DNA of 64,000 bases from an uncultured Thermodesulfobacteriota bacterium. GTDB taxonomy: Bacteria > Desulfobacterota > GWC2-55-46 > JADFVP01. Positions within the stretch are counted from its first letter, which is position 1. Each line of letters starts with the position of its first letter. Below are positions 8,403-57,392 of this stretch, in pieces. The notes under the pieces were generated by a model that did no database searches, had not been told where the DNA came from, and saw only the letters and a list, made by a program, of their open reading frames with translations. The stretch spans positions 244 through 64,243 of the forward strand of contig CAYYJQ010000009.1 in assembly GCA_964472295.1 (NCBI GenBank), in the 5' to 3' direction. Both the position numbers and the translations under genes were made by a program.

Positions 8403-8570
8403 GAGGGGCTCCTTTATGCATGTTTTTTTAACCGGGCACTCTCGCCCGCAGAGTATTTTCAGGGGACAAACAGCACACCGTCCCTTTAAGCCATTTTTTG
8501 TCATCCACGGCTGACTCCCTGCTCCCGCGGGTGTTATTCAGGGGAAAAGGGCCATTCATCCCCAATTCAA

Positions 8571-10805: not shown

Positions 10806-12840
10806 CAATCTCCCCGGCGCTGTGGTAGAGACGGAGAAAAAAAGTCGAGCCCCTCTCCCTGTAATCAACCATGGGCACGGGCAGTGCGTCTCCATGGTCC
10901 GAACTTATGGTAATCTTCTTCTCGTTATCTCCCATGCTCACCCAGCCCTCCGTGGCCCCGAGACACGACGAGGCCGAGATGGCCTGACTTACGGGGCTTG
11001 AGTGCGATACGGCGTGCCCCTGGAGCATGAACCTCTCGGGACGGGTCCCGCCGTTCACGGTCTCGTAGTAGAGTTGGTCTCTCTGAAAGGCCTCTGGCAT
11101 GAGCGTGAAGATACCGAGCCGCAGGGAAGAGGCCATGAGCCCCCGAAGCCTTAGCCTGTAGTGAAGGGTAAAGGAGCTATTTGAAAATGGGATGCGATAG
11201 GTCTTCTCGATTATTCCAATGGGCGACTCAATAGCGGCGAAGACGGATACGCCGTCATTGTCTTCAGTAACAGTGGGCGCAACGGGCAGGAGGTCCGTGG
11301 TCTTCCGGCCATGGCGGCTCGTCTGTATGAGGTGACCCGAGAAAAAGTCCGCGCCAAGGTCAATGGACTCGTAGTGTCCGTGGCTGATGGTGCCAATGAG
11401 GGGTTCTGGTGAGACAAGGGGAAAAGAGGCCGAACCAAGGGCAAGCCCCCTGTCCTTGAGGAGTTCAATCTCCACGGCCCCGGTGCATACCCTTAGCCGG
11501 GTCTCCGTCTCCTCTGTCTGGACCATGGGCATTAGCCCGGACCTCATTACAGCGCCTGCGCCGATATAGGGGCCGGCAAGGCAGAGGAGGTTGGCCTCCT
11601 GGTCTCTCCCGTTCATATCCTCATCTTCAGTCCCCTCTCCTGTTACTTCCACCAGTGCGTCCGTAAGGCCCGCTTCTCTCATGCGCCGCTCCGTCTCCAT
11701 TGAGAGCCAGCCCATGCCCTCGTTAAAGCGGGCGAATTTTTCATCCGTGGTATTTGTCCTGAAGTCCGAGGCCCAGAGTTCCGTGAGCGTCTCGCGCATC
11801 CTGTCCCAATCCCCTTCGCCTATTACCCCCGCCTTTCCAAGTCCGCGAAACCTCCTGTAGAGCCCCCTGCACCTCGCGTTTATATGGGCGCTGTCGCGGC
11901 CCGTGACCGACCACCTCAGGGGGTTGTACTTTTCCTGCTTCTTGCAGACAATGGGCGTCTCCACGGATTCGAGGCAAAGGGCCGGGGCCTCCCTGTCACT
12001 CTCAAACTTCTTGATAATCTCCACGGGCCGCATGAGTTCAAGCCCCCTCTCGCACCTTATGAGTTCAAGTATTCGCCTTATCCTCGAAAAGTCGCCGCGC
12101 CCGGTCCCGCCCCTTCCAGGGGTAAAGTCAAATATCTCGGCGTCATTGGAGTAGGCCGTGAAGGCGCGGTCCTCGGCGCGGCTGTAATGGGAGCGCAGGT
12201 ACTCCATGTATTCGTCCATGGGGACCTCGCCGCGCGCGGCGCGGGCGAACTTCTGAAAACCAATGGAATGAGACCAGAGGAGCCCTACTTCATCGCCGGG
12301 AACGAGCCCGGCGGCCCTCCGGGGCCTGTAGAGGAGGTCCTTCTCAAAACCGTTATGACGCGCCGAGTTGTTCCAGTCCATGATAATGGCCCTGTAGCCC
12401 GCTTCTTTATATAGTCCCGTAAGTCCTGCTGAATAGGTCTGCTCGTTCACAAGGGCAATCCCGGGGCGTCTTCCAAGTATCTCCTCATAGCCCCTGCACC
12501 CAAGTTCAAGGTTCCACCTGTTCACCTCTGCCGGGATAAGGGGCATGATGCACTGGGCATGGCCAGAGCCGATAAAGTCGAGGGCGCCCTCGGCCCAGAG
12601 TTCGCGGAGGCGGAGCGTAAAGGCGGGGTCAAGGTCCCGCACCCTCTGAAGGGTCCAGGCCGTCATCTCAATGGCCACGGCCAGCCCGGACTCGGCAAGG
12701 CGAAGTATGGGCCAGTAGCAACTCTTTATTACAGAGGGAAAGTCGCGGCTGTCTATGAGCGAGAAGGCGAGATTGCAGTGAAAGAGGGCATAGACCGAGA
12801 GCCCTGGCAGGGGCTTCTCCTCAAAGGAATTTTTTCTCAC
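10726..12840 (-). CDS. Large (704 aa) GH57-like member of the glycoside-hydrolase/deacetylase superfamily. Function unknown; presumably sugar processing in the glycosylation island.
   Basis: The N-terminal ~300 aa resembles the GH57 catalytic barrel, with a FIGSGHAQCIMPLIP block like the GH57 'yyHpIlPL' motif. The canonical HxHQP motif is replaced by FHCNLAF. The C-terminal half is unrecognised. The stop codon lies inside the tandem repeat. Confidence 0.35.
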   Translation of the reverse strand: MRKNSFEEKPLPGLSVYALFHCNLAFSLIDSRDFPSVIKSCYWPILRLAESGLAVAIEMTAWTLQRVRDLDPAFTLRLRELWAEGALDFIGSGHAQCIMPLIPAEVNRWNLELGCRGYEEILGRRPGIALVNEQTYSAGLTGLYKEAGYRAIIMDWNNSARHNGFEKDLLYRPRRAAGLVPGDEVGLLWSHSIGFQKFARAARGEVPMDEYMEYLRSHYSRAEDRAFTAYSNDAEIFDFTPGRGGTGRGDFSRIRRILELIRCERGLELMRPVEIIKKFESDREAPALCLESVETPIVCKKQEKYNPLRWSVTGRDSAHINARCRGLYRRFRGLGKAGVIGEGDWDRMRETLTELWASDFRTNTTDEKFARFNEGMGWLSMETERRMREAGLTDALVEVTGEGTEDEDMNGRDQEANLLCLAGPYIGAGAVMRSGLMPMVQTEETETRLRVCTGAVEIELLKDRGLALGSASFPLVSPEPLIGTISHGHYESIDLGADFFSGHLIQTSRHGRKTTDLLPVAPTVTEDNDGVSVFAAIESPIGIIEKTYRIPFSNSSFTLHYRLRLRGLMASSLRLGIFTLMPEAFQRDQLYYETVNGGTRPERFMLQGHAVSHSSPVSQAISASSCLGATEGWVSMGDNEKKITISSDHGDALPVPMVDYRERGSTFFLRLYHSAGEIDDTSYWVWRGVNELTFKVRAKKHRSD

Positions 12841-14459
12841 GGATACCTCTCCTTGAGTCCGAGGATGTCGTACTTTACGAACATGGCCGAGGTCTCAAGG
12901 AGGACGTTCATGAAGATTGGCCGCTTTCTCCGCCATACATCGCCTATGTAACGGAGCGCGCGCATGGGGTCTGACCTTATGAGGTGATGGGTCCTGTCGG
13001 CCTCGACAATGGTCTCTATGTACTCCGGGGTAAAGTCCCGCGTCTTTATATTGGGTTTTACCACCTCCACGCGGTCGTAACTGAACCCATCGGCAAAGAG
13101 GCCCTCGTCGCGACACCTCTCGAATAGTTCACTTCCCGGTAAAGGCGTGGCTATATAGACCTCTCTGCTGTCAAAGAGGCCGCTGTAGTTAGCCATGTAG
13201 AGAGAGCGCCGAATGTCATCTTTTGTCTCTCCCGGCAGGCCTATGACAAAGGTCCCTGTAAGGCGAACGCCCTTATTGCGGGCATAGCGCAGGACCTCCA
13301 TGGCGCGGTCGAGTTTAAGGGGTTTTTTGACTATATTTGTAAGTACCTCCTGAACCCCGGACTCGATGGCAAAGCCCATGGAGACGCATCCCATCTCAAC
13401 GAGTTCATCTATCAGTTCCTCGTCCATGCACCATAGGGCAAGGACCATGAAGTGTATCTCAAGGTCATAGCCCCGGCGTCTGAACCCGCGGCAGAACTCC
13501 TTTGCCCGCTTCCTGTCGTGGGTGAAGTTATCGTCAATTATCATGAGTTTTTTTATGCCGTAATTCTCGACAAGAAAATCTATCTCGCGAAAGACCTCTT
13601 CAAGGCAACGCGCCCGGAACTTGCGTCCCATGGTCCTGTGCACGGAGCAGAAGACGCACCTTCCGGCGCAGCCCCGAGTGGTGAGCACAGTGGGCATGGC
13701 CTGAGGCCAGCCCCATGTCACGGCCCGGGGCTCGTAGTTTTTGGAGTATTTTTCGTATGGAAAGAGGTGCCACGCCGGAAAGGGCAGGGCATCGAGGTCG
13801 TTTATGAAATCGCCCCTCGGGTTAACGGTAACACGCCCGTCCTCCCGCCAGACAAGGCCCGGCACAGAGGCATAGGCAGGGCCTTTTGCCGCGGCCCCGG
13901 CCTCTTCCATGTCTTTTTTCCCTTCTCCATCCTTACCCTCTTTGCACGTGCAGTTGTCGCAGGACTCTCCGTCGCCGCACCTGCCATCTTCTCTCTCAAT
14001 GGCGTCTATCAGGGCTGGAAGGGACTCCTCGGCCTCGCCCATGAGGACAAAATCAATGGCAGGGTTCTCCATGACCTCTTCGGGCATGGATGTGGGGTGG
14101 TTTCCGCCGACTACTACAGGGGAATCTGGGTAGATGGATTTCACGATACGGGCCGTCTCGTTCATGGAGCCCACCATTACTGAAAAGTTACAACTTATTC
14201 CAACCATATCTGGCTCAAAATCCCTTATCCTCTTTGAGACCTCGTCCATGGGAATACCCACCTCCACATAGTTGTCCCTTAGCGGCGCGTCCCTGTCGAG
14301 CCCCTCGGTCTGGCAGTCCAGAATGGCCACCTCACGGCCCCTCTTTTCAAGGACAGCCGCAAGGTACATTATGCCCATTGGGGGGTATACTATCCTCTGC
14401 CCTGATGTGGCTATCCTCATGCCCGGCTGTATAAGGAGTATCTTCTCTATTTTCTTCAT
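12837..14459 (-). CDS. B12-binding radical-SAM enzyme; probably a methyltransferase/rearrangement enzyme acting on the flagellin sugar.
   Basis: An N-terminal cobalamin-binding Rossmann domain (ILLIQPGMRIATSGQRIVYPPMGIMYLAAVLEKRG) precedes a radical-SAM CxxxCxxC cluster (CAGRCVFCSV). A Cys-rich linker (CGDGESCDNCTC) separates them. The start is at MKKIEKIL, with AAGGGA 6 nt upstream. Confidence 0.75.
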   Translation of the reverse strand: MKKIEKILLIQPGMRIATSGQRIVYPPMGIMYLAAVLEKRGREVAILDCQTEGLDRDAPLRDNYVEVGIPMDEVSKRIRDFEPDMVGISCNFSVMVGSMNETARIVKSIYPDSPVVVGGNHPTSMPEEVMENPAIDFVLMGEAEESLPALIDAIEREDGRCGDGESCDNCTCKEGKDGEGKKDMEEAGAAAKGPAYASVPGLVWREDGRVTVNPRGDFINDLDALPFPAWHLFPYEKYSKNYEPRAVTWGWPQAMPTVLTTRGCAGRCVFCSVHRTMGRKFRARCLEEVFREIDFLVENYGIKKLMIIDDNFTHDRKRAKEFCRGFRRRGYDLEIHFMVLALWCMDEELIDELVEMGCVSMGFAIESGVQEVLTNIVKKPLKLDRAMEVLRYARNKGVRLTGTFVIGLPGETKDDIRRSLYMANYSGLFDSREVYIATPLPGSELFERCRDEGLFADGFSYDRVEVVKPNIKTRDFTPEYIETIVEADRTHHLIRSDPMRALRYIGDVWRRKRPIFMNVLLETSAMFVKYDILGLKERYP

Positions 14460-14469
14460 GAAATATCCC

Positions 14470-15720
14470 TTATTGGACCATCCTGAGGCGTCCCTCGACC
14501 GTGAAATCAACGCCCTCGATGGCCTCGCGCGCCCTCATGGAGGCCTCTTCGGGCGTAACGCCCGTTGTAATGACCATGCCCGCCCTTCCGGGGTGAGATA
14601 CCACGGGGCCAAGGGTATCCCCTGGCTTCACGTTTATCTCCATCTCCTCAAGGCCGGGCATCATTTTTATATGCGGCGGTATGCGAATGGAGCGCACGAC
14701 TCCTGGCCCGGGGAACCAGAACCTCTGCGATACAAAGCGCGATTTCCATGGCCTGTAATCCCCTGCCCTTACCTTGACGCCAAGGGCAAGGAGGATTGCC
14801 GCCTCCACAATATCAACGCCCAATGAGAGGGGTATGGTATGGGTGCAGAAAAACCCGCCGCTTAGCCTCGGGGCGGCCTCTATGACCACGGGGCCGCAAT
14901 CGCCCATCACGATGTCGCCCTTTATAGTCCAGTCGTCAATACCAAGGGCCCTCCCTACCCTGCCTATTACCTTGTCCACGGCCTTGCGCTCATCATCTGT
15001 GAGGCGCGCCGGAAGGTCCCCTCCGTTCTCTATCACATAGGGCGAGAACCGCTCTATATACTCGTAATTTCTCTCCGAGAGCCCCGGCGTGGCCACCACC
15101 CCGCCCGTGAGCACGGACTCCGTACTTATCTGTAGCCCCTCCACCCATTCCTCCGCCATTACGCGGCCAGAGGGCGAGTTTTTCTCTGCCTCGAAGAAGG
15201 CCCACGAGGGGTCAACGCCCCCGGTAAGACGTATGACGCCGCGCGCGCCCCGGCTGTCCACTGGTTTTATTACAAGGGTTTTCTTTCGCTCAAAGATAAT
15301 TTTCTTTAGTTCCATGGGTCCCATTACCATGGAGTACCACGGCACTGGGACCCCGGCGCCTCTCATGGCCTCTTTCATGAGGAATTTATCGGACGCAAGG
15401 CGCGCCGACTCGATTGAGGGGCCGGGTAGACCGAGGCCCTCTGCCACGGTAGCCACTGTAAGGGGCACGTCAGCGGCGGCGGAGAGAACGCCGTCAATGG
15501 GACTTACACTGTGCATGGCCCGTGCGAGCCTCAGGGACTTTTCCGCGTCATAGGTGCTCGAAAGCATGGCCTCATGGGCAAGGGCAAGGCCCGGGGCCTT
15601 TTCATCGCCGTCAGAGACGATTACATGGAGCCCCATGGCAATGGCCTTCTCAATGATGGGCAGGGCCTCTCTTCCGCCGGAAATTATGAGTATGGTCTTT
15701 CCCGCAACGCTCATGGACAT
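14470..15720 (-). CDS. ATP-grasp family ligase.
   Basis: 416 aa with a pre-ATP-grasp N-domain and an ATP-grasp central domain (LASDKFLMKEAMRGAGVPVPWY...KTLVIKPVDSRGARGV...AEEWVEGLQISTESV). Confidence 0.7.
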   Translation of the reverse strand: MSMSVAGKTILIISGGREALPIIEKAIAMGLHVIVSDGDEKAPGLALAHEAMLSSTYDAEKSLRLARAMHSVSPIDGVLSAAADVPLTVATVAEGLGLPGPSIESARLASDKFLMKEAMRGAGVPVPWYSMVMGPMELKKIIFERKKTLVIKPVDSRGARGVIRLTGGVDPSWAFFEAEKNSPSGRVMAEEWVEGLQISTESVLTGGVVATPGLSERNYEYIERFSPYVIENGGDLPARLTDDERKAVDKVIGRVGRALGIDDWTIKGDIVMGDCGPVVIEAAPRLSGGFFCTHTIPLSLGVDIVEAAILLALGVKVRAGDYRPWKSRFVSQRFWFPGPGVVRSIRIPPHIKMMPGLEEMEINVKPGDTLGPVVSHPGRAGMVITTGVTPEEASMRAREAIEGVDFTVEGRLRMVQ

Positions 15721-16757
15721 ACGATCACCTTTACGGCCCCTGAGGCCTCCTTGTGAGAGGCGATTGAGAACCCTTCCATAATGTCTTCAAGGGCCACCCT
15801 GTGTGTTATGAGCCCCCTTGCCCGCGCCCTGCCCTCTGCAAAGAGGCCGAGGGCCCGCACAAAGTCTTCCCTGCTGTATCGCTGTGCCCCGCGCACCTCG
15901 ATTTCCTTCTCTGTAAGGTCCTTGAGGTTCATCTCGGGCGTCCTGTAATGAACGCCTGAGAGGACCAATACCCCGCCCGGCAAAAGGGCCTCGATGGCCG
16001 TTGTAATGGAGGCGCTCCCAAAGCCCCCGGAAGTATCAAAAACAATGTCAAAGGGTTTATGGTGTGAAAGGGGGCCGCATCCTGCAGGGTCAAGGGCCTC
16101 ATCGGCGCCCATCTTCAGGGCAATCTCCCTCTGAAAGGGGTACTTTCCAAGGACCGAGACCATTGACGCCCCTATTATGGAGAGGGCCCTTGTGATGAGA
16201 AGCCCAAGGGTTCCACAGCCTATGACAAGGGCCCTCTTTCGGGCCACTGGACCGCCCATGGACACTGCGTGAAGTGCCGCCCCAAGGGGCTCGACAAGGA
16301 CGGCCTCTTCAGGGTCAAGATTGGTCGGGAGTTCAAAGACATTGGAAGAAGGCACGGTAACAAACTCGGCAAAGCCTCCCGGGCGGTCGAAACTTACAAA
16401 AGAGCCCTTTTTGCAGAGATTTGCGCGCCCCGAAGCGCAGGCATGACAACTCCCACAGGGCACAAGGGGAGATACCACGACCCCTGCGCCCCTCTTTATA
16501 CCCCTGACCCCCTCTCCCAGTTCTTCCACCACGCCGCCTATCTCATGGCCTGCCCAGAACCTCGGCACAGGCGGGTCGCAATGAAAGATATTAAGGTCTG
16601 AGCCGCATATGCCGCAGGCCCTTACGCGCAGAAGGACCTCTCCGGTCGATGGCAGCGTGACCGCGCGCTCTCTTACAACGAGCCTCCCCGGCCCATCGAA
16701 GACAGCGGCCCTAAGCCCCGGCGGCCTTTCTGATATTTTCTCTAAAGGCATGTTCAT
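15711..16757 (-). CDS. Zinc-dependent alcohol dehydrogenase (MDR family; threonine/sorbitol dehydrogenase-like).
   Basis: Catalytic and structural Zn motifs are present (RACGICGSDLNIFH; GHEIGGVVEELG; a CGSCHAC cluster). A Rossmann GxGxxG follows. I chose the start at MNMPLEK, where AGGAGG lies 9 nt upstream. Confidence 0.75.
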   Translation of the reverse strand: MNMPLEKISERPPGLRAAVFDGPGRLVVRERAVTLPSTGEVLLRVRACGICGSDLNIFHCDPPVPRFWAGHEIGGVVEELGEGVRGIKRGAGVVVSPLVPCGSCHACASGRANLCKKGSFVSFDRPGGFAEFVTVPSSNVFELPTNLDPEEAVLVEPLGAALHAVSMGGPVARKRALVIGCGTLGLLITRALSIIGASMVSVLGKYPFQREIALKMGADEALDPAGCGPLSHHKPFDIVFDTSGGFGSASITTAIEALLPGGVLVLSGVHYRTPEMNLKDLTEKEIEVRGAQRYSREDFVRALGLFAEGRARARGLITHRVALEDIMEGFSIASHKEASGAVKVIVCP

Positions 16758-17403
16758 GGCCAGGCACCTCCTTCCAGTCAGAGAGGAACTTCTCAAGGTC
16801 CATGTCAGTCATTGTGTTAAGGAGCATCTTCTCAAGGACTATGAAAGGCACCGTGGCTATATGCACCCCAGCCCTTGCCACCTCCACAATCTGATGGGGG
16901 TCCCGTATGCTCGCGGCTATGACCTCTGTCTTGAGGTCATGGTGAGAGAAGGTCTCCATTAGTTCGCGCACAAGGCCAAGGCCGTTATACCCCCTGTCCT
17001 CGAGCCTGCCGATAAAGGGGCTTATATAATCAGCGCCCGCCATTGCCGCAAGGAGGGCCTGCGTGGGGGAGAATATGAGCGTGAGGTTGGTCTTCACGGA
17101 CTCGCCGCGAAGGAGCGTAAGGGCCTCCATTCCCGCGGGGTTTGCCGGTAGTTTTACTACAACGTTGCGGGAAACCTCGGCAAGGACACGCGCCTGTCCG
17201 GCCATGTCTTCGGGAGACCTTGCCGTTACCTCGAGGCTTACGGGATGGGGATAGACGACCTCGCATATCTCGGAAGCGACCTCGATAAAGTCCCTCTTCT
17301 CTCTCGCGATGATAGAGGGGTTCGTGGTGACGCCGCTCAGGACCCCCCAGGCTTTTGCCTTTTTTATCTCTTTAATATCAGCGGTATCGAGAAATAACCT
17401 CAT
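16711..17403 (-). CDS. Transaldolase-family protein of the fructose-6-phosphate aldolase / TalC type.
   Basis: MRLFLDTADIKEIKKAKAWGVLSGVTTNPSI is the FSA/TalC signature; the protein is ~230 aa. I chose the start at MRLFLD, with GAGGAGG upstream. Confidence 0.75.
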   Translation of the reverse strand: MRLFLDTADIKEIKKAKAWGVLSGVTTNPSIIAREKRDFIEVASEICEVVYPHPVSLEVTARSPEDMAGQARVLAEVSRNVVVKLPANPAGMEALTLLRGESVKTNLTLIFSPTQALLAAMAGADYISPFIGRLEDRGYNGLGLVRELMETFSHHDLKTEVIAASIRDPHQIVEVARAGVHIATVPFIVLEKMLLNTMTDMDLEKFLSDWKEVPGHEHAFRENIRKAAGA

Positions 17404-17430
17404 AATCGTCCTCCTCTTTTTAGGTGTCAC

Positions 17431-18642
17431 TTAACTGCCTTGCATAGACCTCTCAAGCCCCACGGCCCCGTTGCCAAAGTTGCCAAAGTTAATAGATACC
17501 CTGCCCCCTTTCCTGCCAAGCGCTGTTATGGCCGCGTTTATATCTTGAAGTTCAAAGGAACGTCCCTCGGCAGTATCGAGTTCCACAAGGCCCTGCTCAT
17601 GAAGCCCCAGTATCCATGGTATGGCAAGAGAGGGGTTTGACGATCCGTATAGCGAGCCCAGGAGTCTCTTCTCAAGGTGAAAGTCCACGGCAGGGAGGGT
17701 GAGGTCCTGAAGGGGGTGGGGCGAGCCCACCATGACTACCGTGCCTCCCCTTCGAGTCGCTTCCAGTGAAGACCGCACCGTCTCACCAGTGGCAACACAG
17801 TCAAATGCAATGTCCACGCCAATGCCGCCTGTAAGTTGCAATATCTCGTTCCTATCAATGCGTTCCGCGTAGTGGTCAACGCCATTCTTATTCCACCTGC
17901 TCCTCTCGCGCTCAACGAGCATGACCATGCCAGCGCCCCTGTGCCTCAGTGCCTCCACAACCGCGCGCCCAACGTTCCCCCCGCCAACAACAAGTGCCCT
18001 CTCACCCCCTCTCATGTATGGAGCGGCTGTGCGGAAGACAGCCCCAAAGGCAGTTACAACAGGGCAGCCCGCAAGGGCGGCCTCTTCTGGACCAAGGCCA
18101 TCCGGGACCTTGACACAGCCCGTCCTGTATACGACGGTATACTCACTGAAGGACGATACGCCGTTAAAATGGAAAATTACGCCCCCGTCTTCGCCCCCTC
18201 CGCTCCCTTTGGCCCCTTTGCCCCCCTTGGCCCCCTTGGCCCCCTTGCCAAGTCCGCCATCTTTAAACCTTGTTGTCCCGTCGGGAAGAAGCCCCCTGCC
18301 CCGTGGCCAGGCAATGGAACTGCATAATTGAGTCTCGCCTCGGGCGCAAAAGTAGCACCTCCCGCAGAAGGCCGCCCAACTGAGGGCCACGCGCTGGCCC
18401 GGCCTTAGGTCATGGACACCAGCGCCTGTCTCCACCACCGTGCCGACTCCCTCGTGGCCCAGGACAAGGGGCATCTCATACCTTGTGTGGCCGCTAATGG
18501 CGTTGAGGTCGCTCCTGCAGAGCCCGGCTGTCTCCATCTTCACAAGGACCTCTTCAGGTCCCGGCGGGGCGAGAGTAATCTCTCTAACCTCAAGGGGCGT
18601 GTCTTTTCTTGTGAGCACTGCGGCCCTTGTCTCTATGGCCAA
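17431..18642 (-). CDS. Zinc-dependent alcohol dehydrogenase (MDR family) carrying an in-frame Gly-Lys-rich insertion (GKGAKGAKGGKGAKGSGGGEDGG).
   Basis: LCRSDLNAISGH...GHEGVGTV...CGRCYFCARGETQLC are ADH Zn motifs. The insertion at 18170-18260 is encoded by the same GGGGCAAGGGGC repeat seen in intergenic tracts. Confidence 0.7.
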   Translation of the reverse strand: MAIETRAAVLTRKDTPLEVREITLAPPGPEEVLVKMETAGLCRSDLNAISGHTRYEMPLVLGHEGVGTVVETGAGVHDLRPGQRVALSWAAFCGRCYFCARGETQLCSSIAWPRGRGLLPDGTTRFKDGGLGKGAKGAKGGKGAKGSGGGEDGGVIFHFNGVSSFSEYTVVYRTGCVKVPDGLGPEEAALAGCPVVTAFGAVFRTAAPYMRGGERALVVGGGNVGRAVVEALRHRGAGMVMLVERERSRWNKNGVDHYAERIDRNEILQLTGGIGVDIAFDCVATGETVRSSLEATRRGGTVVMVGSPHPLQDLTLPAVDFHLEKRLLGSLYGSSNPSLAIPWILGLHEQGLVELDTAEGRSFELQDINAAITALGRKGGRVSINFGNFGNGAVGLERSMQGS

Positions 18643-18645
18643 GGT

Positions 18646-19995
18646 TCAGGACTCCTTTCTTGCCGTAACGTTATAGGAGGCCGCCGAGAAGCATGGGTCG
18701 CGTTCGGTGGAAAGTCCGAAATCCAGTATATCCCAACGTATAATCTCGCACGTACCCTCGATGAGATCGTAAAAACCATCTCTCAAGAGCGCGTCTTTCA
18801 GTCTCGCTCCTATCTCACGGCCCCTGACATAGGTAATGTAGTTCTTCTCCTCAAGGGTGAAGCCCGCTTCCTTGAGCATGGGAAGCATTCGCGCCTCTCC
18901 GAGGGCCTGAATGTGCCAGGGCCATATGGCGTCTTCAATCAGTCTTGCTTCATCTTCGCCCCTGCGTTCAGGCGGGCATACCCTGTAGGGATAGTAGTCT
19001 TCTTCAGGCGTACTCAAGACAAGGAGCCCGCCGGGCCGAAGTAGACGGCGGGCATGGGCCAAGATGCTCTCAGGGTCAGGGGCGTGCTCTATTACGTCCA
19101 TGAGAAAGACCACGTCAAAGTAGCCTTCTCTATCAACAAGGCCTTTGGCCTCGCCGCAGATGGCGGTGAGATTTTGCGCAAGGGGAGACCACGTCTTTCT
19201 TACAAAATCCGCGGCCCCTTGTGATTTATCGAGATACACGACCTCTTCGGCTGTCCTTGAGAGAAGAAAGGCCCCGTACCCAAGCCCACCTCCTATATCG
19301 AGAACCTTCCGGCCCCGTGCCTTTTCCATGCCAGAGGCATACTTCATGAATATCTCGAGGTCATGGCCAAAGCCGCCAAGAAGGCCGAGGTTCGGCCTCT
19401 CGCCAGAGACCTTGAGCCCCCCTTTATCAAGGGAACTCATGACCCTTGAGATGCTTTTGAGGGTAGAGCGTATCTCCTGAATATCACTTAGCCAGGGCAG
19501 GGTGAACTCCGGGGTCCTCTCTGCATCGAGGGAATAGGCTATCTCCTTTGGAGGAAGGCCGGCCCTGAGGAGCGACGCGTTTATTGCCACGGCCTCTTGT
19601 GCCACAATGGCCCCGAAGAGATAGGCGTTCGCCCGAAAGGTATTGAAGGGAAAGAAGACCCTCGCATAGCGATGGGCGGCCTTGTCCAGAAGAAATGCCC
19701 TTGAGGCGGGCCTGGTGATTCCGCCGTAATACTCCTCGTCAAGGACATGGACAGCCTGAAACCCGAAATCAGCGATTATAGGGGCAAGGACCTTTCGTTG
19801 TTTCTCAAGTATGAGCAGTTCAATATTATCACCCCGGCCCCGGGGGCCGCCCATGGCAAGGCTACCGCCGCCCACGGCCACCTTCGCGGCCCCAGATGTT
19901 GCCGCCGCCTCTCTGGCCAGCCTATCAAATACATACTCGATGAGCGGTCTCGCCAACGGCGCTGACTCTGGGAGCATTATCAGGGTTCCTCTCAT
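18646..19995 (-). CDS. Two-domain protein: an unknown N-terminal domain followed by a C-terminal class-I SAM-dependent methyltransferase.
   Basis: Motif I VLDIGGGLGYGAFLLS and post-I DVVFLMDVIEHAPDP are present. 449 aa. Confidence 0.65.
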   Translation of the reverse strand: MRGTLIMLPESAPLARPLIEYVFDRLAREAAATSGAAKVAVGGGSLAMGGPRGRGDNIELLILEKQRKVLAPIIADFGFQAVHVLDEEYYGGITRPASRAFLLDKAAHRYARVFFPFNTFRANAYLFGAIVAQEAVAINASLLRAGLPPKEIAYSLDAERTPEFTLPWLSDIQEIRSTLKSISRVMSSLDKGGLKVSGERPNLGLLGGFGHDLEIFMKYASGMEKARGRKVLDIGGGLGYGAFLLSRTAEEVVYLDKSQGAADFVRKTWSPLAQNLTAICGEAKGLVDREGYFDVVFLMDVIEHAPDPESILAHARRLLRPGGLLVLSTPEEDYYPYRVCPPERRGEDEARLIEDAIWPWHIQALGEARMLPMLKEAGFTLEEKNYITYVRGREIGARLKDALLRDGFYDLIEGTCEIIRWDILDFGLSTERDPCFSAASYNVTARKES

Positions 19996-21032
19996 TGGTC
20001 CTCCTTTATGTCCTTTACTCCAAAGATAACGGCCTCGCGTCCTATGCCGTTCTCAGCCATAAGGGCGTACATCTCGTCCTTGAAGGCCCGAAGGCGCTTT
20101 TGGGATAACATGATGTCGAGCCTTGCGCGCATATGGTGGCACCTTCTCCCAAGGGCGTCGTCACCAACGTAGTCCTCTCCCATGAGGAGAAAAAAATCCA
20201 TGGGAAAGGTGGAAGTTGTCTTTAATATTGAGAACCCCGCCCTCTCCATGAGGGCCTTTATTGAGTCAAAGGAGAAATAATTTATATGGTGAGGCACTGC
20301 GACCCAGTAATCTTCGTAACCCCGTCTTTCGCGAAGCGCCTCCTGCACGGGACTGAAGTCATTTGGCACGACAACACAGGCAATGCCGCCGGGTTCAAGG
20401 AGCCCAAAGGCGCCGGAGAGGACCTTTTGGGGGTCGCGCACATGCTCGAGGACCTCGGAGATATGTACGGCGTGGAATGAGCGCCCCTCTTTTTCAAGGG
20501 CCATTGCGTCAAAAAAGCCCCTTATCACCTCCACGCCGCTGGAAAGGGCCGTCCTTGCGGCCACTTTTGATGGCTCCACGCCAAGGCCCTTCCAGCCGCG
20601 CTCCGTGGCGCGTTTCAGAAAAAACCCCGGCCCACAGCCAATATCGAGAAGCCTTCTACTGCCTGCAAAAAGGTTTTTCTCCATGAATTCGAGCCTCTCG
20701 TCAAAGACAGTCTTCCACCACTCTTCGTCCTCGCGGACGCGCTCTATGAAGGCGGGTTTTTCAGAGGTGAAGTACTCGTCCCTGTAAATCCTCTCAAGTT
20801 CTTCTTCCGCTGGAATGGGGTCAATGTGAATAAAACCGCATGGCCGGCAATCAATGACTTCATAGCCGTCCTTTTCCGCAAGGAGAGGCCCTTGATGAAC
20901 GGCCTTGCCATCAAAAAGACGCCCGCTCTCTGCCTCTCTCATGGCCCCCATGCCCTTCTCCCGCCTTGCCTCCGCGCATCCCCTGCCTACCCCGCGCGCG
21001 CCTTTTTCGCACCTTGCCCCACCTGGTCTCAC
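19992..21032 (-). CDS. Class-I SAM-dependent methyltransferase (Methyltransf_23-like) with an N-terminal zinc-ribbon-like CxxC.
   Basis: LLDIGCGPGFFLKRA (motif I) and HAVHISEVLEHVRDP are present. The exact start is uncertain; the first ~30 aa of the ORF may be UTR. Confidence 0.65.
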   Translation of the reverse strand: MRPGGARCEKGARGVGRGCAEARREKGMGAMREAESGRLFDGKAVHQGPLLAEKDGYEVIDCRPCGFIHIDPIPAEEELERIYRDEYFTSEKPAFIERVREDEEWWKTVFDERLEFMEKNLFAGSRRLLDIGCGPGFFLKRATERGWKGLGVEPSKVAARTALSSGVEVIRGFFDAMALEKEGRSFHAVHISEVLEHVRDPQKVLSGAFGLLEPGGIACVVVPNDFSPVQEALRERRGYEDYWVAVPHHINYFSFDSIKALMERAGFSILKTTSTFPMDFFLLMGEDYVGDDALGRRCHHMRARLDIMLSQKRLRAFKDEMYALMAENGIGREAVIFGVKDIKEDQ

Positions 21033-22024
21033 GACCTGCCCCGTCTCTTGTATAGTTCGGCTATGATTGTGGCGATACGCCAGGCCCCGCGCCCGTCGCT
21101 GAGCCTCTTTGCCTGCGCCGAGACCTCGCGCCAGTAGGAGGCGTCTTCCACAAACCTTGCGGTGGCACCCCTTATGAGTTCTTCCGATAGAGCGCCATGA
21201 AAACCGAGGGATACGCCGACCTTGAGCTCTCGGAGGGCCGCGAGGTCTTTTTCGTCTTCTCTATAGTTTGATATGATTAGCGGAGGGACTCCCATGAAGG
21301 CGAGTTCATACACAGTGGTGCCAAGGGCCGTAAAGGCGATGTGCGACGATGCCATAAGCGGCGCCATGTCCTTGACAGACCTGCGAAAGGTGATGGCCGG
21401 GTTATGGAGGAAGGGTTCAAGCGTCTCGTAATGCCCATAATCAGGACCAAGGACAACGGTAAATTTTATGTCCTCCATGCCCGAGAGGGCCTTCAAGACC
21501 TTCAGTGTGATGTTATTGGCGTCGCACCAGCCCATGGTGACAAGAATCTTTAGGGGAAGGTCGTGGCCAATAGGCTTCATGGCCTTTCTGGCGCGAAAGA
21601 AGTTATCGCCTATGATGACGAACTTGCTCCCCGCGTAGGCCTCGCCTTTTTTTCTCCTGTCCATGAATGCCGATGGTGTTATGGAGAGGTCCGCCATCAT
21701 GGAGGCCCTTGTGGAGTTGTCTATGAGGAGGACCTTTGAGCCCTTCTCCTTGAAGGACCTTATCTGCTCAGTCACGTCCTCTTCCGTGTCCATTACGACC
21801 ACGCCAGAAGGCCCCTCGGCAAGGGCCGGCCTTCCGGGACGGTATCTGCACCATGTAAAGCCGTTCTCCTCTACAAGATCAGTGGCCGAGCTCTCGTTGT
21901 CAAATAGAAAGTACACAGGCATGTCCATCTCCTTCAAGGCCCGGGCCACGTTGAGGCTCCTCATAACATGGCCCATGCCCCTTGGGCCGCCGCCCTTTGC
22001 AAGTATCTTTATGTATTCTGACAT
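21029..22024 (-). CDS. pseG: PseG-like UDP-2,4-diacetamido-2,4,6-trideoxy-beta-L-altropyranose hydrolase (GT28-like fold).
   Basis: ILAKGGGPRGMGHVMRSLNVARAL matches the PseG N-terminal G-rich/GHxxR motif. It is ~330 aa and sits in a pse cluster. Confidence 0.6.
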   Translation of the reverse strand: MSEYIKILAKGGGPRGMGHVMRSLNVARALKEMDMPVYFLFDNESSATDLVEENGFTWCRYRPGRPALAEGPSGVVVMDTEEDVTEQIRSFKEKGSKVLLIDNSTRASMMADLSITPSAFMDRRKKGEAYAGSKFVIIGDNFFRARKAMKPIGHDLPLKILVTMGWCDANNITLKVLKALSGMEDIKFTVVLGPDYGHYETLEPFLHNPAITFRRSVKDMAPLMASSHIAFTALGTTVYELAFMGVPPLIISNYREDEKDLAALRELKVGVSLGFHGALSEELIRGATARFVEDASYWREVSAQAKRLSDGRGAWRIATIIAELYKRRGRS

Positions 22025-23034
22025 ATCTTCAGCTCCTTTTTTCCTCTCACATCAACGGCCGATTCCCTCACCTTCATGGCGAGCCTCAGCGTCTCAAGCC
22101 CCTCGTCAAGACCCGGGTCCGCCGGGACGCCCGTGCCCATGGAAGAGAGAAAGTGCTTTATCTCCCTTAGATACATATCATTGACCTCAAAGAGAATGTC
22201 CCTTCTTCGCCATTCGCTTCCCGCTGGGCCGCATATCTCTTCCACGCCCCTCATGATGTCGAACCTCATGGTCCCCCGCTCGCCCACGATTACAAGCCTG
22301 TGCTGGCCCGCGCGCTGGAGAAAGTCCGTCTGCCAACTCACATATGCCCCGGAAGAGAGCCTCATGACGGCAAGGGCCATGTCCTCTACGTCCATCTCAA
22401 GGGGGCTTACCCTGTCCATGAAGGCCTTTACCTCTTCCACCTCGCCAAAGAGCCACCTCAGCGTATCAAGGCCGTGTATGCTCGTAAGGAGCACCCCGCC
22501 GCCAAGGTCCCTTCGCGCCGCGTAGCCTCTTCTGTAGTCTTCCTTCCCGTGCCAGTAGGGAAGATAATGCCCGCCAAAATAATTCACGTGATAGACCCGC
22601 CCGATGACTCCCGATGCGAGGCGCTCCTTTACTGCAAGGAGCACGGGGTGGAACCTGTAGCACATGGCCATCATGGCGTTAAGGCCCCTCATCCTGACAA
22701 TGTCCATGAGCCTTGCCACGCCGTCCATCTCACTTGAGAGGGGTTTTTCGATAAAGAGGTGCGCCCCCTTTGAGGCGGCCATGGCGGCGTGCCTCGTGTG
22801 AAGGCTTGTCGGGGTGCATATGAGGGCCGCCGCCGGACAAGCCCTCAGGGCCTCTTCCATTGTAGTGGCGATGACAGGGCCTGTAAGCCCCTCTCCGGCA
22901 GACCTTGCGCGGGCAGGGTCCCGGTCGAGGAGGACAAAGTCTTTCGCTCCGAGGGCGCGGAGGTTTACAAGGTGTCTTCTCCCTATGGAGCCGCATCCGG
23001 CTATGAGGAATTTCTTTTTTATCGTATTTTTCAT
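22009..23034 (-). CDS. Gfo/Idh/MocA-family NAD(P)-dependent sugar oxidoreductase.
   Basis: FLIAGCGSIGRRHLVNLRALG is the N-terminal Rossmann motif. 341 aa. Confidence 0.7.
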   Translation of the reverse strand: MKNTIKKKFLIAGCGSIGRRHLVNLRALGAKDFVLLDRDPARARSAGEGLTGPVIATTMEEALRACPAAALICTPTSLHTRHAAMAASKGAHLFIEKPLSSEMDGVARLMDIVRMRGLNAMMAMCYRFHPVLLAVKERLASGVIGRVYHVNYFGGHYLPYWHGKEDYRRGYAARRDLGGGVLLTSIHGLDTLRWLFGEVEEVKAFMDRVSPLEMDVEDMALAVMRLSSGAYVSWQTDFLQRAGQHRLVIVGERGTMRFDIMRGVEEICGPAGSEWRRRDILFEVNDMYLREIKHFLSSMGTGVPADPGLDEGLETLRLAMKVRESAVDVRGKKELKICQNT

Positions 23035-23038
23035 GGCA

Positions 23039-24352
23039 TCAGTCCCTGCTCCTGAAGACCTCGCCCACTATCTCTCCGTCGAGAAAAGATGCCGGGCTCG
23101 CGCTCTCGAAGGCGTTTCGCACCACGGAGAGGGCCTCATAAGAGACCTCTATGGTGCGGTCTATATCCACCTCGCTGTGCGAGTAACTCGTAAAGACGGG
23201 CCCGCCAAAGAGCACGCCGCGTTTAACCGTCTCCTGCAAAAAGAGGCTCCTCATGAGGGGGTCGGCCTCGCCAAGGTCGTTCCTGAAGATAAGTCCGGCG
23301 CGCGGGGGCCGGCCGGAGACCTCCATCTCAAGGCCCCACTCGTGGGCCGCGAGCCTCAGGCCCTCGTGGAGCCTTGCGCCCATCTTCCAGATATGCTCAA
23401 TTACAGGTTCCCTCATGATGGTCTCAATAGTGGCCTTTGCCGCGGCAAGCCCGGTGGTCTCTCCAGAGAAGGTCATGGAAAAGAAGACCTCGTCAAGGGA
23501 GTTCATGAACTCGCGCTTGCCCACAAGGGCCGAGACAGCCATGCCGTTGGCCATGCCCTTTCCAAAGCATGACAAATCCGGCTCCACGCCAAAGAGTTCC
23601 TGCGCCCCGCCAAGGGAGTACCTGAACCCCGTGACCATCTCGTCAAGGATAAAGAGGGCGCCGTTCTTCCTGCAGAGGAGCGCCGCGTCCTGAAGAAAGT
23701 TGCGCTTTGTCCTGAGGTTTATGACAGGATCTGCGCCCGGAACCTCCATTATGACGCAGGCTATCTGCCCGTAGAACTCATCAAATAGGGTCTCGAGGGT
23801 CTCGAGCCTGTTGTACTCGAAGGCGTGTATGAGTTCTCTGTTGAAATCAGGTATGCCGCGGTTACGCGGCGTTGTAACGGCGTACCAGTCCTGACACCCG
23901 TGATACCCTGAATAGGCTATATGCTCTCTACCGGTGCAGGCGCGGGCCAGGCGCACCGCCGCGCTCGTCACATCAGAGCCGTTCTTAGCGAAGCGGACCA
24001 TCTCGGCAGAGGGTATGACCTCTGTAAGTAATTCGGCGAGTTCCACCTCAAGGGGGTGCATGAGCGTGAAGGTCGTCCCGAGGCCAAGCCTGTCCATTAC
24101 CGCCTCCATGACGGGCCTGTACCCATAGCCAAGGAGTATGGGACCAAGTGCCATGGGGTAATCAATGTACTCGTTTCCGTCAACATCCCAGACGTGGGCC
24201 CCCCTGCCGCGCTCAAGATACCTGGGCGTCACGCCGAAGACAAACTGGTCGGGCCCCTTGCTAAGTGTCTGCGTGCCCGCTGGTATGACCCTCGCGGCCC
24301 TTGCCCAGAGGGCCTCAGATGCCGGGTGTATCTTCTTCCTCATAAGCGCCAT
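23039..24352 (-). CDS. Class-III (PLP) aminotransferase, glutamate-1-semialdehyde aminomutase-like.
   Basis: 437 aa. ...RVIPAGTQTLSKGPDQFVFGVTPRYLERGRGAHVWDVDGNEYIDY... is the GSA-AT family N-terminal pattern, and a 'DEMVTGFRYSLGGAQE' PLP-lysine region follows. Confidence 0.7.
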   Translation of the reverse strand: MALMRKKIHPASEALWARAARVIPAGTQTLSKGPDQFVFGVTPRYLERGRGAHVWDVDGNEYIDYPMALGPILLGYGYRPVMEAVMDRLGLGTTFTLMHPLEVELAELLTEVIPSAEMVRFAKNGSDVTSAAVRLARACTGREHIAYSGYHGCQDWYAVTTPRNRGIPDFNRELIHAFEYNRLETLETLFDEFYGQIACVIMEVPGADPVINLRTKRNFLQDAALLCRKNGALFILDEMVTGFRYSLGGAQELFGVEPDLSCFGKGMANGMAVSALVGKREFMNSLDEVFFSMTFSGETTGLAAAKATIETIMREPVIEHIWKMGARLHEGLRLAAHEWGLEMEVSGRPPRAGLIFRNDLGEADPLMRSLFLQETVKRGVLFGGPVFTSYSHSEVDIDRTIEVSYEALSVVRNAFESASPASFLDGEIVGEVFRSRD

Positions 24353-24417
24353 TGGGTAATCCTCCTATTACTTGTCCTTGAGCGCGTCCGGGTGCCTAAT
24401 GACCGGACCGTAAGCCC

Positions 24418-25440
24418 TCACCGGTGGGGAAGCCCTGAAAAGGGCATGTCCCCGGCAAGGGATCTAAGATAGCCCTCGTTTCTGATGGTCGATGAATTTA
24501 TCTTTAATAATTCAGGTATTCTGTCAATAAGTTCAAGTATCTCCTCCATATAGAAGACCCTCAGCGGACAGGCAAAACTCTGGAAGACCTTACGGGCAAA
24601 CTCAAGGTCGCGGCCATCGTCCACTGTCCAGCGCATATGGGAGAGGTCTTCTATATTAGGAATGGAACGCACTCTGAACCTCTGCCTGTTTTTCCATATA
24701 TGGGGCGTGACGTGCTCTCTCTCCGAGGGCAGAATTGCTTCTTTAAAGGCACGGTCAAGTGCATGGAAGGTGAAGACCTCTGTGTCGAGGCCATCTGGAA
24801 AGGTTCCGTCAAGGCCCATGTAATCGAGGTCAGGGGCGTTGAGGAACTCCTCGACAACCCTCTCCACAAGTATGGGGTCTATCATGGGGCAATCGGCTGT
24901 AACGCGCACCACGGTTCGTGCTCCATGCTCTTTTGCCGCGCCATGATAGCGGGAGAGCACATCAGAGAGCGCACCCCTGTAAGAGGCCACGCCCTCAGAT
25001 GAGCACCAGCGCGAGATAATGTCATCGGAAGAGTGTGTGCTCGTGGCGACCACTATTTCATCAATGGCCCTTACATACCTCAGGCGGTTTATAACGTGCC
25101 AGAGCATGGGCCGTCCGCAGATTTCCCGCATCACCTTTCCGGGAAGCCTCGTGGAACTCATCCTTGCCTGCACTATGGCGACAACGGGCCTTCGCGGTGT
25201 TTGCGCGCCAAAGGGCCTCTTCGCGCCCTCCGCGCCTCGCGTCCCCCTTCTTGCATACCTCTCTCCCCCTGTCTCCCTATCTCCCATCTCCCCCCTTGGC
25301 CCCGTCGCCCCCATCGCCCCCGTCGCCCCCTCTCCCCCTGTGCCACTCGCCCCCTCTGCGATCTTCAACCCCTTTGCCCCCATCGCCCTCTCTCCCCTTG
25401 GCCCCCCTGGGCGCATGTCTCTCAACATAGGTCCTCCCAC
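24418..25440 (-). CDS. pseF: CMP-pseudaminic acid synthetase / acylneuraminate cytidylyltransferase (PseF-like) with an N-terminal collagen-like Gly-X-Y extension.
   Basis: The core reads VVAIVQARMSSTRLPGKVMREICGRPMLWHVI..., the CMP-NeuAc-synthetase family motif. At least 35-90 aa of Gly-rich sequence precede it (GAKGLKIAEGASGTGGEGATGAMGATGPRGEMGDRETGGERYARRGTRGAEGAKRPFG). The true start lies somewhere between 25440 and the MGDRE codon. Confidence 0.65.
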   Translation of the reverse strand: MGGPMLRDMRPGGPRGERAMGAKGLKIAEGASGTGGEGATGAMGATGPRGEMGDRETGGERYARRGTRGAEGAKRPFGAQTPRRPVVAIVQARMSSTRLPGKVMREICGRPMLWHVINRLRYVRAIDEIVVATSTHSSDDIISRWCSSEGVASYRGALSDVLSRYHGAAKEHGARTVVRVTADCPMIDPILVERVVEEFLNAPDLDYMGLDGTFPDGLDTEVFTFHALDRAFKEAILPSEREHVTPHIWKNRQRFRVRSIPNIEDLSHMRWTVDDGRDLEFARKVFQSFACPLRVFYMEEILELIDRIPELLKINSSTIRNEGYLRSLAGDMPFSGLPHR

Positions 25441-28640: not shown

Positions 28641-28672
28641 GGGCAATCCTCCTTTTCTCCCATACTTGTAAT

Positions 28673-28687
28673 GCAACTTGTATGCCA
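28673..28687 (-). promoter_or_regulatory. Sigma-54 promoter of the pseB-led glycosylation operon.
   Basis: The minus strand reads TGGCATACAAGTTGCA, which is TGGCAC-N5-TTGCA with one mismatch. It ends ~33 nt upstream of the pseB ATG. Confidence 0.55.
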
Positions 28688-57390: not shown

Positions 57391-57392
57391 CT

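Follow-up and report, generated by a model that had tools for sequence, protein, structure and literature searches.

Why should a transaldolase be encoded within an operon for flagellin glycosylation? The question is raised by a stretch of 64,000 nucleotides from an uncultured Thermodesulfobacteriota bacterium (assembly GCA_964472295.1, contig CAYYJQ010000009.1, positions 244 to 64,243 of the forward strand), which is referred to here as the window. In it, a flagellar pseB/pseC operon, named after pseudaminic acid (Pse), holds five adjoining genes for two methyltransferases (MT-A and MT-B), two zinc-dependent alcohol dehydrogenases (ADH-2 and ADH-1) and a transaldolase (Tal) lying between the dehydrogenases. 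An original prediction had regarded them as a sub-module for the building and attachment of a (di-O-methyl)glyceroyl-type acyl group. The observation is confirmed by the present analysis, and the interpretation is partly supported. We give about even chances to the reading that ADH-2, Tal and ADH-1 are a lineage-specific cassette, consisting of a C-C bond-forming enzyme and ketoreductase, of a widespread, uncharacterised nonulosonate-tailoring module built around a constant pair, an ATP-grasp ligase and a GH57-like protein (glycoside hydrolase family 57). Its observed basis consists of the family assignments, the type of the transaldolase, the synteny and the pattern in which carboligases substitute for one another; from these we infer the chemistry.

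The Five Genes

The five open reading frames (ORFs) are all found at the positions originally given for them, and Pfam assigns each to the expected family (two Zn dehydrogenases, one TAL_FSA protein and two methyltransferases). They are co-directional on the minus strand, and their transcription runs opposite to the order in which they had been listed. It begins with MT-A (19992-21032), a class I S-adenosylmethionine (SAM) methyltransferase of the Methyltransf_23 family (6.4e-26), and continues with MT-B (18646-19995), a two-domain class I methyltransferase in which Pfam places the methyltransferase domain at residues 223-382. The Zn-dependent medium-chain dehydrogenase/reductase (MDR) ADH-2 follows (17431-18642; ADH_N 7.4e-26 and ADH_zinc_N 6e-18), then the short, TalC-type transaldolase Tal (16711-17430; TAL_FSA 2.4e-51) and finally ADH-1, also a Zn-dependent MDR (15711-16796; ADH_N 4.7e-26 and ADH_zinc_N 3.7e-15).

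The block is bounded by a PseG-like gene upstream and by the ATP-grasp ligase gene downstream. Both the upstream and the downstream members of the operon, from PseB through Maf, lie on the same strand as the five genes, maf being the last gene of the operon. The junctions are overlaps or gaps of a few bases, and a scan of the operon for internal promoters and terminators gave no signal above chance. Flagellar genes stand on both sides: flgK, a flagellin-family gene and fliW on one, a flagellin gene and fliD on the other. The predicted location inside a pse operon is borne out by PseB and PseC, which score above their model cutoffs, and by the NeuB-like, CTP_transf_3 and PseG-like proteins encoded upstream. 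The claim that the module serves specifically to tailor the nonulosonate of flagellin is likewise supported.

The Transaldolase

The enzyme had been described as a transaldolase or fructose-6-phosphate aldolase (FSA) which makes or uses a three-carbon ketose. The first name is retained, whereas FSA and a free C3 ketose are not. Tal scores 255.2 bits against TIGR00875 (fsa_talC_mipB), above the cutoff of 245.95, and its best solved relative, matched over the full length, is the transaldolase of T. maritima (1vpx, 224.7 bits), while the E. coli FSA structures reach about 119. All seven module copies that were aligned have K84 (in VVKLP), E58 (SLEV) and F130 (SPFIGR) unchanged, and the module enzymes share the motifs S-x-E-V, which holds the Glu, and S-P/L-F-I-G-R, which holds the Phe. 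We take K84 to be the Schiff-base Lys and the Glu/Phe pair to be the mark of a transaldolase, as against the Gln (Q59) and catalytic Tyr (Y131) of FSA; this distinction is reported from work on TalB, TacTal and FSA. R133, S165 and R167 are likewise kept in the module enzymes, and this Arg/Ser/Arg set presumably forms the phosphate site. Ten Tal-type residues, among them the Glu/Phe pair and the Arg/Ser/Arg set, do not vary across the seven module copies and six of seven further copies adjoining ATP-grasp genes, the exception having Trp.

Two other identities were rejected. As a fructose-6-phosphate aldolase, the protein would lack the Tyr and Gln, which are replaced by Phe and Glu, and the scores of about 119 against 224.7 bits also exclude it; as a sulfofructose transaldolase, it would match at only about 125-128 bits, compared with 224.7 for the canonical transaldolase. 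From the Glu/Phe pair and the kept phosphate-site residues it follows that the enzyme is expected to move a C3 ketol (dihydroxyacetone unit) between sugar phosphates and to release no free dihydroxyacetone. The short transaldolases of the T. maritima 1vpx type have the same Schiff-base Lys, Glu/Phe pair and phosphate-binding Arg/Ser/Arg as the window enzyme; the window gene differs from them in lying inside a glycan-tailoring operon, and the acceptor of its product may be non-canonical. Translation of Tal probably starts at ATG 17403.

Conservation of the Operon

The whole operon is kept in more than 20 loci of uncultured Thermodesulfobacteriota metagenome-assembled genomes (MAGs). In a tblastn matrix, PseB through Maf appear in the same order at 40-85% protein identity, and the same operon was present on every long MT-B-carrying contig examined. 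A scan of one genome per species yielded 16 loci, all in uncultured Thermodesulfobacteriota or "Deltaproteobacteria" MAGs. Among the loci (numbered here with a prefixed L), L023 has Tal relocated between the two methyltransferases, the operon of L024 begins with the GFO-family gene followed by MT-B, ADH-2, Tal and ADH-1, and in L020 the block from the aminotransferase to the GH57-like gene is separated from the pse and flagellar genes. Because the synteny in more than 20 independent loci survives these changes of order, the gene set is not a chance juxtaposition. The Tal proteins of L020 and L023 are only 36-41% identical to the window copy, whereas the other copies are at least 60% identical, so that a different Tal paralogue has been recruited to the same place. 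This independent recruitment of a divergent paralogue argues that Tal activity is needed in the operon.

The five genes had been taken for one sub-module, a claim that does not hold. Orthologues of MT-A (42-47% identical) come after a cytidylyltransferase and a class-III aminotransferase in transketolase-type clusters without MT-B, Tal or the ADHs, and the five genes are therefore not one evolutionary unit. Several units are present instead, MT-A going with the cytidylyltransferase and the class-III aminotransferase, and MT-B with ADH-Tal-ADH.

The ATP-Grasp and GH57-Like Module

The ATP-grasp ligase is distributed far more widely than the five genes. A metagenome scan for it returned more than 508 relatives at 45-57% identity, and 80 loci. 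The C-C bond-forming enzymes and short-chain dehydrogenases/reductases (SDRs) were counted in those 38 loci whose sequence extends at least 3.5 kb beyond the ATP-grasp gene on its upstream side, and the GH57-like genes in the 44 loci with enough downstream sequence. A C-C bond-forming enzyme stands beside the ATP-grasp core in 35 of the 38: a split transketolase (16/38), an IlvB-like thiamine pyrophosphate (TPP) enzyme (15/38), Tal (3/38) or transketolase together with Tal (1/38), with none in the other 3/38. An SDR is adjacent in 32 loci, and the Zn-ADH pair occurs in the window-type locus only. Downstream, a GH57-like gene lies within 5 kb of the ATP-grasp gene in 39 of 44 loci.

Collinear clusters are found in Terriglobales and other MAGs. 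Their typical order is PseB, DegT, NeuB, cytidylyltransferase, class-III aminotransferase, aldo-keto reductase, PseG-like protein, methyltransferase, SDR, split transketolase, ATP-grasp and GH57-like protein, and a flagellar example reads NeuB, cytidylyltransferase, transketolase, SDR, ATP-grasp, Maf, GH57-like protein and PseB. Homologues of the ATP-grasp ligase sit in many other nonulosonate or polysaccharide clusters, with simpler Tal-SDR-ATP-grasp arrangements in L060, L084 and L091. In L089 (6788-10001), Tal and a split transketolase, with an SDR between them, are directly upstream of the ATP-grasp gene.

Since transketolase or TPP enzymes with an SDR hold the corresponding place in the sister clusters, ADH-2, Tal and ADH-1 can be assigned to a slot for a C-C bond-forming enzyme and a ketoreductase. 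The replacement of ADH-Tal-ADH by transketolase and SDR, or by an IlvB-like TPP enzyme and SDR, argues for chain extension of an aldehyde acceptor and not for a glycerate-specific route. The ligase, at 45-57% identity across the Tal, transketolase and TPP versions, is suggested to recognise a part of the substrate that is common to all of them, and the pattern suggests that the carboligase sets the chain length. A broader proposal, which we hold only tentatively and regard as somewhat doubtful, is that Tal, split transketolase and the IlvB-like TPP enzyme, which are unrelated to one another, are interchangeable carboligases of one widespread, uncharacterised pathway, with the ATP-grasp and GH57-like core, that builds polyhydroxy-acyl chains of varied length on nonulosonic acids, both in flagellins and in surface polysaccharides; the window would then represent its Tal, Zn-ADH and B12-radical SAM version.

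The Dehydrogenases and Methyltransferases

Both dehydrogenases keep the Cys/His ligands of the catalytic zinc and a four-Cys structural zinc motif, as read from the sequence (CRSD...GHEG...CGRCYFCARGETQLC in ADH-2 and CGSD...GHEI...CGSCHACASGRANLC in ADH-1). ADH-1 falls in the polyol/threonine dehydrogenase clade, and its best relatives in the PDB are the putative Zn dehydrogenase 4ej6, RspB, threonine 3-dehydrogenases, a ketose reductase and galactitol-1-phosphate 5-dehydrogenase. Its start is probably ATG 16757, 3′ of a GGAGG motif. ADH-2 belongs to the class I/III clade (liver ADH/formaldehyde dehydrogenase). Its orthologue group numbers about 28 members, after which there is an abrupt drop to generic ADHs at 40% identity. 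The protein is 403 residues long with a repeat insert, compared with about 364 in most orthologues: an in-frame 9-bp tandem repeat, CTTGGCCCC, present in 6.4 copies at 18189-18247, encodes a Gly/Ala/Lys-rich insert (GKGAKGAKGGKGAKG...). A second short 9-bp repeat is found near the 3′ end of ADH-2 (17470-17490) and encodes FGNFGN.

MT-A is weakly similar to the sugar 3-C-methyltransferases TcaB9 and KijD1. Its real start may lie downstream of GTG 21032, because its orthologues are 301-312 residues long. MT-B has 27 full-length homologues at 41-63% identity among 5.8 billion proteins, and identity is at most 58% in the closest GTDB representatives, which are uncultured Thermodesulfobacteriota MAGs. 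About 220 N-terminal residues of MT-B have no Pfam assignment, and structure-based annotation, as originally proposed for 18646-19995, gave them a fold class but no assignment. The AlphaFold2 model (mean predicted local distance difference test score, pLDDT, 86.9) gives a confidently folded, Rossmann-like alpha/beta domain for residues 1-200, whereas a Foldseek search with this domain found no fold match in the PDB (best E 0.14). Among 1.84 billion representative sequences, the N-terminal domain has nine matches, of which eight are near full length (405-449 residues) and one is a fragment of 77 residues; eight of the nine have the methyltransferase domain in the C-terminal half, as MT-B does. 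An Ala/Gly-rich, low-complexity insert at residues 28-57 (pLDDT below 50) is confined to the closest relatives of the window protein and absent from most family members. The methyltransferases of about 400 residues encoded in transketolase- and TPP-type loci were considered as orthologues of MT-B and rejected as not orthologous. In L020, an extra methyltransferase of 398 residues (8407-9603), with a C-methyltransferase C-terminal domain (Methyltransf_14), is encoded between MT-A and MT-B.

Related Systems

An experimentally studied system for comparison is the sfmABCDE operon of S. oneidensis MR-1. According to the published account (PMC3765264), it encodes a NeuB-like protein, an IlvB-like TPP enzyme, an SDR, a methyltransferase of 395 residues and an ATP-grasp protein, sits between maf genes and is required for flagellin modification. 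The same account describes the glycan as a mono-N-acetyl nonulosonate of 274 Da bearing a moiety of 236 Da with zero to two methyl groups, the structure of the moiety being unsolved, and reports no clear PseH in this organism. When likened by families, the two systems share a flagellar locus, pseB/pseC, maf, a NeuB-like synthase, a C-C bond-forming enzyme, a ketoreductase, a methyltransferase of about 400 residues, an ATP-grasp protein and the lack of a clear PseH. They differ in that the IlvB-like TPP enzyme and the SDR are both missing from the window operon, which has Tal and two Zn-ADHs, and in that the window operon additionally encodes a B12-radical SAM enzyme, a GFO oxidoreductase, a class-III aminotransferase and MT-B. 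The window does contain the gene combination that characterises the sfm type, namely an ATP-grasp ligase and a methyltransferase together with maf and a NeuB-like synthase. In L066 and L068, the five sfm-type families (NeuB-like, IlvB-like TPP, SDR, methyltransferase and ATP-grasp) adjoin a GH57-like gene.

A cultured carrier of the transketolase version is Solidesulfovibrio carbinolicus DSM 3852, of the same phylum as the relatives of the window, whose cluster, on plasmid pDCAR1, is annotated and uncharacterised. Like the window, it encodes NeuB, cytidylyltransferases, an MT-A orthologue (42% identity over 299 residues, E 8e-82), an ATP-grasp ligase (47% identity), a GH57-like "glycoside hydrolase", pseB and pseC. 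It differs in having a FabG-type SDR and a split transketolase in the place of ADH-Tal-ADH and another methyltransferase, of 415 residues, in the place of MT-B; maf is absent from the stretch shown.

Unusual acyl groups are known from other flagellins. That of T. denticola is reported in PMC13439194 (citing Kurniyati 2017) to carry 2-methoxy-4,5,6-trihydroxyhexanoyl on a Pse-type nonulosonate. The prediction for the window is of this type, since it too has a polyhydroxy acyl chain with O-methylation on a flagellin sugar of Pse configuration, and a further link is a protein of the TP0873_N/DUF8042 type that adjoins maf in relatives of the window. In C. jejuni NCTC 11168, Pse5(2,3-di-O-methylglyceroyl)7Ac is formed in dependence on the aminopeptidase-like Cj1295 (PMC3068675). 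The window is alike to the extent that a methylated hydroxy-acyl group is predicted to replace an N-acetyl group on flagellar Pse. No aminopeptidase-like domain of the Cj1295 kind was found by Pfam in the operon proteins, a search that included no direct comparison with the Cj1295 sequence. To our knowledge, no transaldolase or ATP-grasp enzyme takes part in the Campylobacter route. T. forsythia has an N-glyceroyl Pse whose genetic basis is unknown, and knowledge of nonulosonate-modifying enzymes has been called scarce (PMC5378307). In the original prediction, no aldolase/ADH route to such decorations was known of. The papers searched contained none linking transaldolase with nonulosonic acid, pseudaminic acid or flagellin glycosylation; none of them linked glutamate-1-semialdehyde with flagellin either.

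The Proposed Pathway

The pathway would begin with PseB, PseC, the PseG-like protein, the NeuB-family synthase and the CTP_transf_3 enzyme, which together would yield a CMP-activated Pse-type sugar. One amino group of this sugar would be left free, because no PseH is encoded nearby: a PseH-type acetyltransferase domain was absent from the window ORFs up to about 53 kb (ORFs 53534-63972 lay outside the scan), and no acetyltransferase domain was found in the annotated syntenic loci L001, L003, L005, L023 and L027-L029. Tal would transfer a C3 dihydroxyacetone unit from fructose-6-phosphate or sedoheptulose-7-phosphate to an aldehyde acceptor, and ADH-1 would reduce the newly formed keto group. 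ADH-2 and the GFO-family oxidoreductase may adjust the terminal alcohol or aldehyde, possibly up to the carboxylate. The chain would be methylated by MT-B, perhaps also by MT-A and the B12-radical SAM enzyme. The ATP-grasp ligase would then form an amide between the polyhydroxy acid and the amine left free on the sugar, or on its nucleotide-linked precursor, and Maf would transfer the decorated sugar to Ser/Thr of flagellin.

The most likely product, judged from the comparison of loci, would thus be a methylated polyhydroxy chain, longer than glyceroyl and bound through an amide to a sugar of the Pse type, an analogue of the flagellin glycans of S. oneidensis and T. denticola. An acyl-type decoration that is methylated and hydroxylated, as originally predicted, remains the most plausible outcome, given that the ligase gene directly follows and that no PseH was found, whereas a C3 di-O-methylglyceroyl group in particular finds no support.

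Several points weigh against this scheme. All carriers of the Tal/ADH type are uncultured MAGs, and the product is predicted from genes alone. The genes do not fix the acceptor aldehyde, the source of the carboxylate or the amine partner of the ligase, and a canonical transaldolase normally takes phosphorylated acceptors, so that a phosphatase step may be missing from the scheme. SfmE is reported as ATP-grasp_4 and the window ligase is ATP-grasp_3 with LAL_C2, the two having been likened by their descriptions. PseH could be encoded in another part of the genome. No step in the scheme falls to the class-III aminotransferase, nor has the radical SAM enzyme a defined one, and it could be that the ligase amidates a carboxylate instead, using an amine that this aminotransferase provides.

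Alternative Explanations

The rival that survives best, although we consider it unlikely, gives Tal a purely supplying role. As a canonical transaldolase it would raise the level of erythrose-4-phosphate or sedoheptulose-7-phosphate, of which transketolase is also a one-step source, and the dehydrogenases would convert the sugar to a tetronic or heptonic acid or a polyol that is then attached. The score above the equivalog cutoff, the 224.7 bits to the housekeeping T. maritima enzyme and the conservation of all phosphate-site residues are in keeping with such a role. Tal and transketolase share these products in established pentose-phosphate chemistry, and L089 carries both enzymes. However, pentose-phosphate intermediates are not made by the IlvB-like TPP enzymes that take this position in 15 of 38 loci, and there is no obvious reason why a housekeeping activity should be duplicated in so many clusters.

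The route closest to the original prediction, which now appears improbable, starts from an FSA-like aldolase that releases a free C3 unit (dihydroxyacetone or glyceraldehyde); the ADHs would convert it to glycerate and the methyltransferases would place 2,3-di-O-methylglycerate on Pse, as in C. jejuni NCTC 11168. Products of this kind do exist in that organism (PMC3068675) and, as N-glyceroyl Pse, in T. forsythia (PMC5378307). Two methyltransferases and an amide ligase are present, and Tal as the source of a C3 unit would have its counterpart in transketolase as the source of a C2 (glycolyl) unit. The Glu/Phe pair, which stands in place of the FSA Gln/Tyr in all seven module copies and in six of the seven further ones (Trp in the exception), speaks against it. 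So does the set of enzymes, which had been regarded as suited to glycerate: none of the five genes encodes an obvious aldehyde-to-glycerate oxidase, Zn-ADHs normally do not oxidise aldehydes to acids, MT-A is part of a different sub-module, and the operon proteins lack a domain like that of Cj1295. Glycolysis provides glycerate or 3-phosphoglycerate without an aldolase, and the IlvB-like enzymes found in the same position of the sister clusters, where transketolase or TPP enzymes with an SDR replace ADH-Tal-ADH, cannot yield glyceroyl.

It is likewise improbable that the C-C bond-forming enzymes extend or branch the hexose or nonulosonate skeleton itself into a higher-carbon sugar, with a separate role for the ATP-grasp ligase. 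The precedent is the transaldolase LmbR, which reportedly extends a sugar chain for the octose of lincomycin. The GFO and ADH enzymes could make the sugar aldehyde required, L020 has its extra protein with a C-methyltransferase domain, and MT-A is weakly like sugar C-methyltransferases. Pse, however, is a 9-deoxy sugar with no primary alcohol to oxidise, the tight pairing of C-C bond-forming enzyme and ligase suggests a shared small molecule, and the nonulosonate core of S. oneidensis is an ordinary one of 274 Da. Finally, that Tal and the ADHs are central-metabolism genes lying incidentally in the operon is extremely improbable, since Tal does closely resemble housekeeping short transaldolases but its position is held in more than 20 loci despite rearrangements, divergent paralogues were recruited independently, the orthologues of ADH-2 form an operon-specific group no larger than the MT-B family, and the (near-)overlapping junctions show no internal terminator signal above chance.

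Other Genes of the Locus

All further genes described here lie on the minus strand. The sugar pathway upstream of the five genes starts with the inverting UDP-N-acetylglucosamine 4,6-dehydratase PseB (27594-28688; TIGR03589, 489 bits against a cutoff of 407.75) and the aminotransferase PseC (26459-27673; TIGR03588, 459.2 bits against 423.5). The NeuB-family nonulosonate synthase (25422-26711; Pfam NeuB, 3.4e-80), whose real start is probably near 26465, scores under both the NeuB cutoff (342 bits against 399.65) and that of PseI (295 against 340.25). The CTP_transf_3 cytidylyltransferase (24418-25440; Pfam, 2.1e-29), with a real start probably near 25230, matches PDB 6oew at 128 bits and the PseF model at only 26 bits, where the cutoff is 205.7. 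It is followed by the class-III aminotransferase (23039-24352), which is glutamate-1-semialdehyde aminomutase-like (NF004856, 429 bits against a cutoff of 486) and counts aminoglycoside C-6′ aminotransferases among its PDB relatives. The GFO/IDH/MocA oxidoreductase (22009-23034; assigned by Pfam) has WlbA (3q2k, 73.6 bits) as its best PDB relative, and in TPP-type loci its position is held by an aldo-keto reductase, as seen in L028 and L029. The PseG-like GT-B protein (21029-22024) reaches 106 bits against TIGR03590, under the cutoff of 153.55.

The cytidylyltransferase, the glutamate-1-semialdehyde aminomutase-like aminotransferase, the oxidoreductase and the PseG-like protein (22009-25440 in the window; also L027-L029) recur as a separate sub-module in nonulosonate clusters, the oxidoreductase being GFO here and an aldo-keto reductase elsewhere, sometimes fused to the cytidylyltransferase. 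The lipopolysaccharide/O-antigen locus of L. pneumophila serogroup 6 has PseG, a class-III aminotransferase and a cytidylyltransferase without the ligase cassette (PMC3694923), and the trio can therefore be considered a sub-module of its own.

Downstream, the ATP-grasp carboxylate-amine ligase (14470-15720) is of the L-amino-acid-ligase type (Pfam ATPgrasp_N, ATP-grasp_3 and LAL_C2). The next gene encodes a B12-binding radical SAM enzyme (12837-14510; assigned by Pfam), probably of the methyltransferase class; in NCBIfam it comes closest to the Sden_1168 P-methyltransferase family, with 248 bits, under the cutoff of 575. Full orthologues of it (59-83% identity) occur only in Tal/ADH-type loci, and L064 and L110 have weak matches of 29%. 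The GH57-like protein of 704 residues (10726-12840; Pfam, E 1e-11) is like GH57 in the first 280 residues or so, and showed no PDB sequence match and, at a lenient threshold, no further Pfam domain. It belongs to an uncharacterised family of 650-770 residues, GH57-like over the N-terminal 150-280 (window, L025-L030 and L111), that is tied to nonulosonate clusters. The GH57 fold is shared with sugar deacetylases, and on this likeness one may speculate that the protein is a deacylase. The last gene of the operon encodes the Maf (MptE-like) flagellin nonulosonate glycosyltransferase (8571-10493; Pfam MptE-like, 8.3e-32; NCBIfam PseD domain model, 111 bits).

A protein of 235 residues without Pfam match is encoded between maf and the flagellin gene (7797-8504). 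Its homologues, 30-64% identical, adjoin maf in many loci and give DUF8042/TP0873_N matches. Flagellin glycosyltransferases of the Maf type need an extra factor, GlfM (bioRxiv 10.1101/2023.12.03.569772), and the 235-residue protein could be a candidate for such a GlfM-like factor. The small ORFs around fliW (28695-29018 and 29441-29839) are ambiguous; a 107-residue ORF downstream of fliW has no Pfam match, and relatives have a CsrA of 76-78 residues between a flgL-like gene and fliW. A hybrid histidine kinase (Cache, PAS, HisKA, two receiver domains and Hpt), a receiver-GGDEF diguanylate cyclase and a PilZ protein are encoded around the flagellar genes (38279-42872 and 3962-4576), and these neighbours suggest control of motility by cyclic di-GMP.

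Significance

Flagellin glycans affect filament assembly, motility and recognition by phages or the immune system. How the unusual N-acyl groups of flagellar Pse and legionaminic acid (Leg) are made is largely unknown, whether glyceroyl, di-O-methylglyceroyl, methoxy-trihydroxyhexanoyl or the 236 Da moiety of Shewanella. Accessory gene sets that tailor flagellar nonulosonates are already known, whereas the version with Tal, Zn-ADHs and a radical SAM enzyme is undescribed. If the broader proposal of interchangeable carboligases is true, a transaldolase would for the first time have a role in the biosynthesis of protein glycans, and the product would be a methylated Pse derivative not yet described. 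The framework of a constant ATP-grasp and GH57-like pair, with a swappable C-C bond-forming enzyme and ketoreductase, ties the window to the studied sfm operon and to the cultured S. carbinolicus; if it holds, one would expect the length of the attached chain to follow from the kind of carboligase, and the enzymes of the module could be of use in glyco-engineering.

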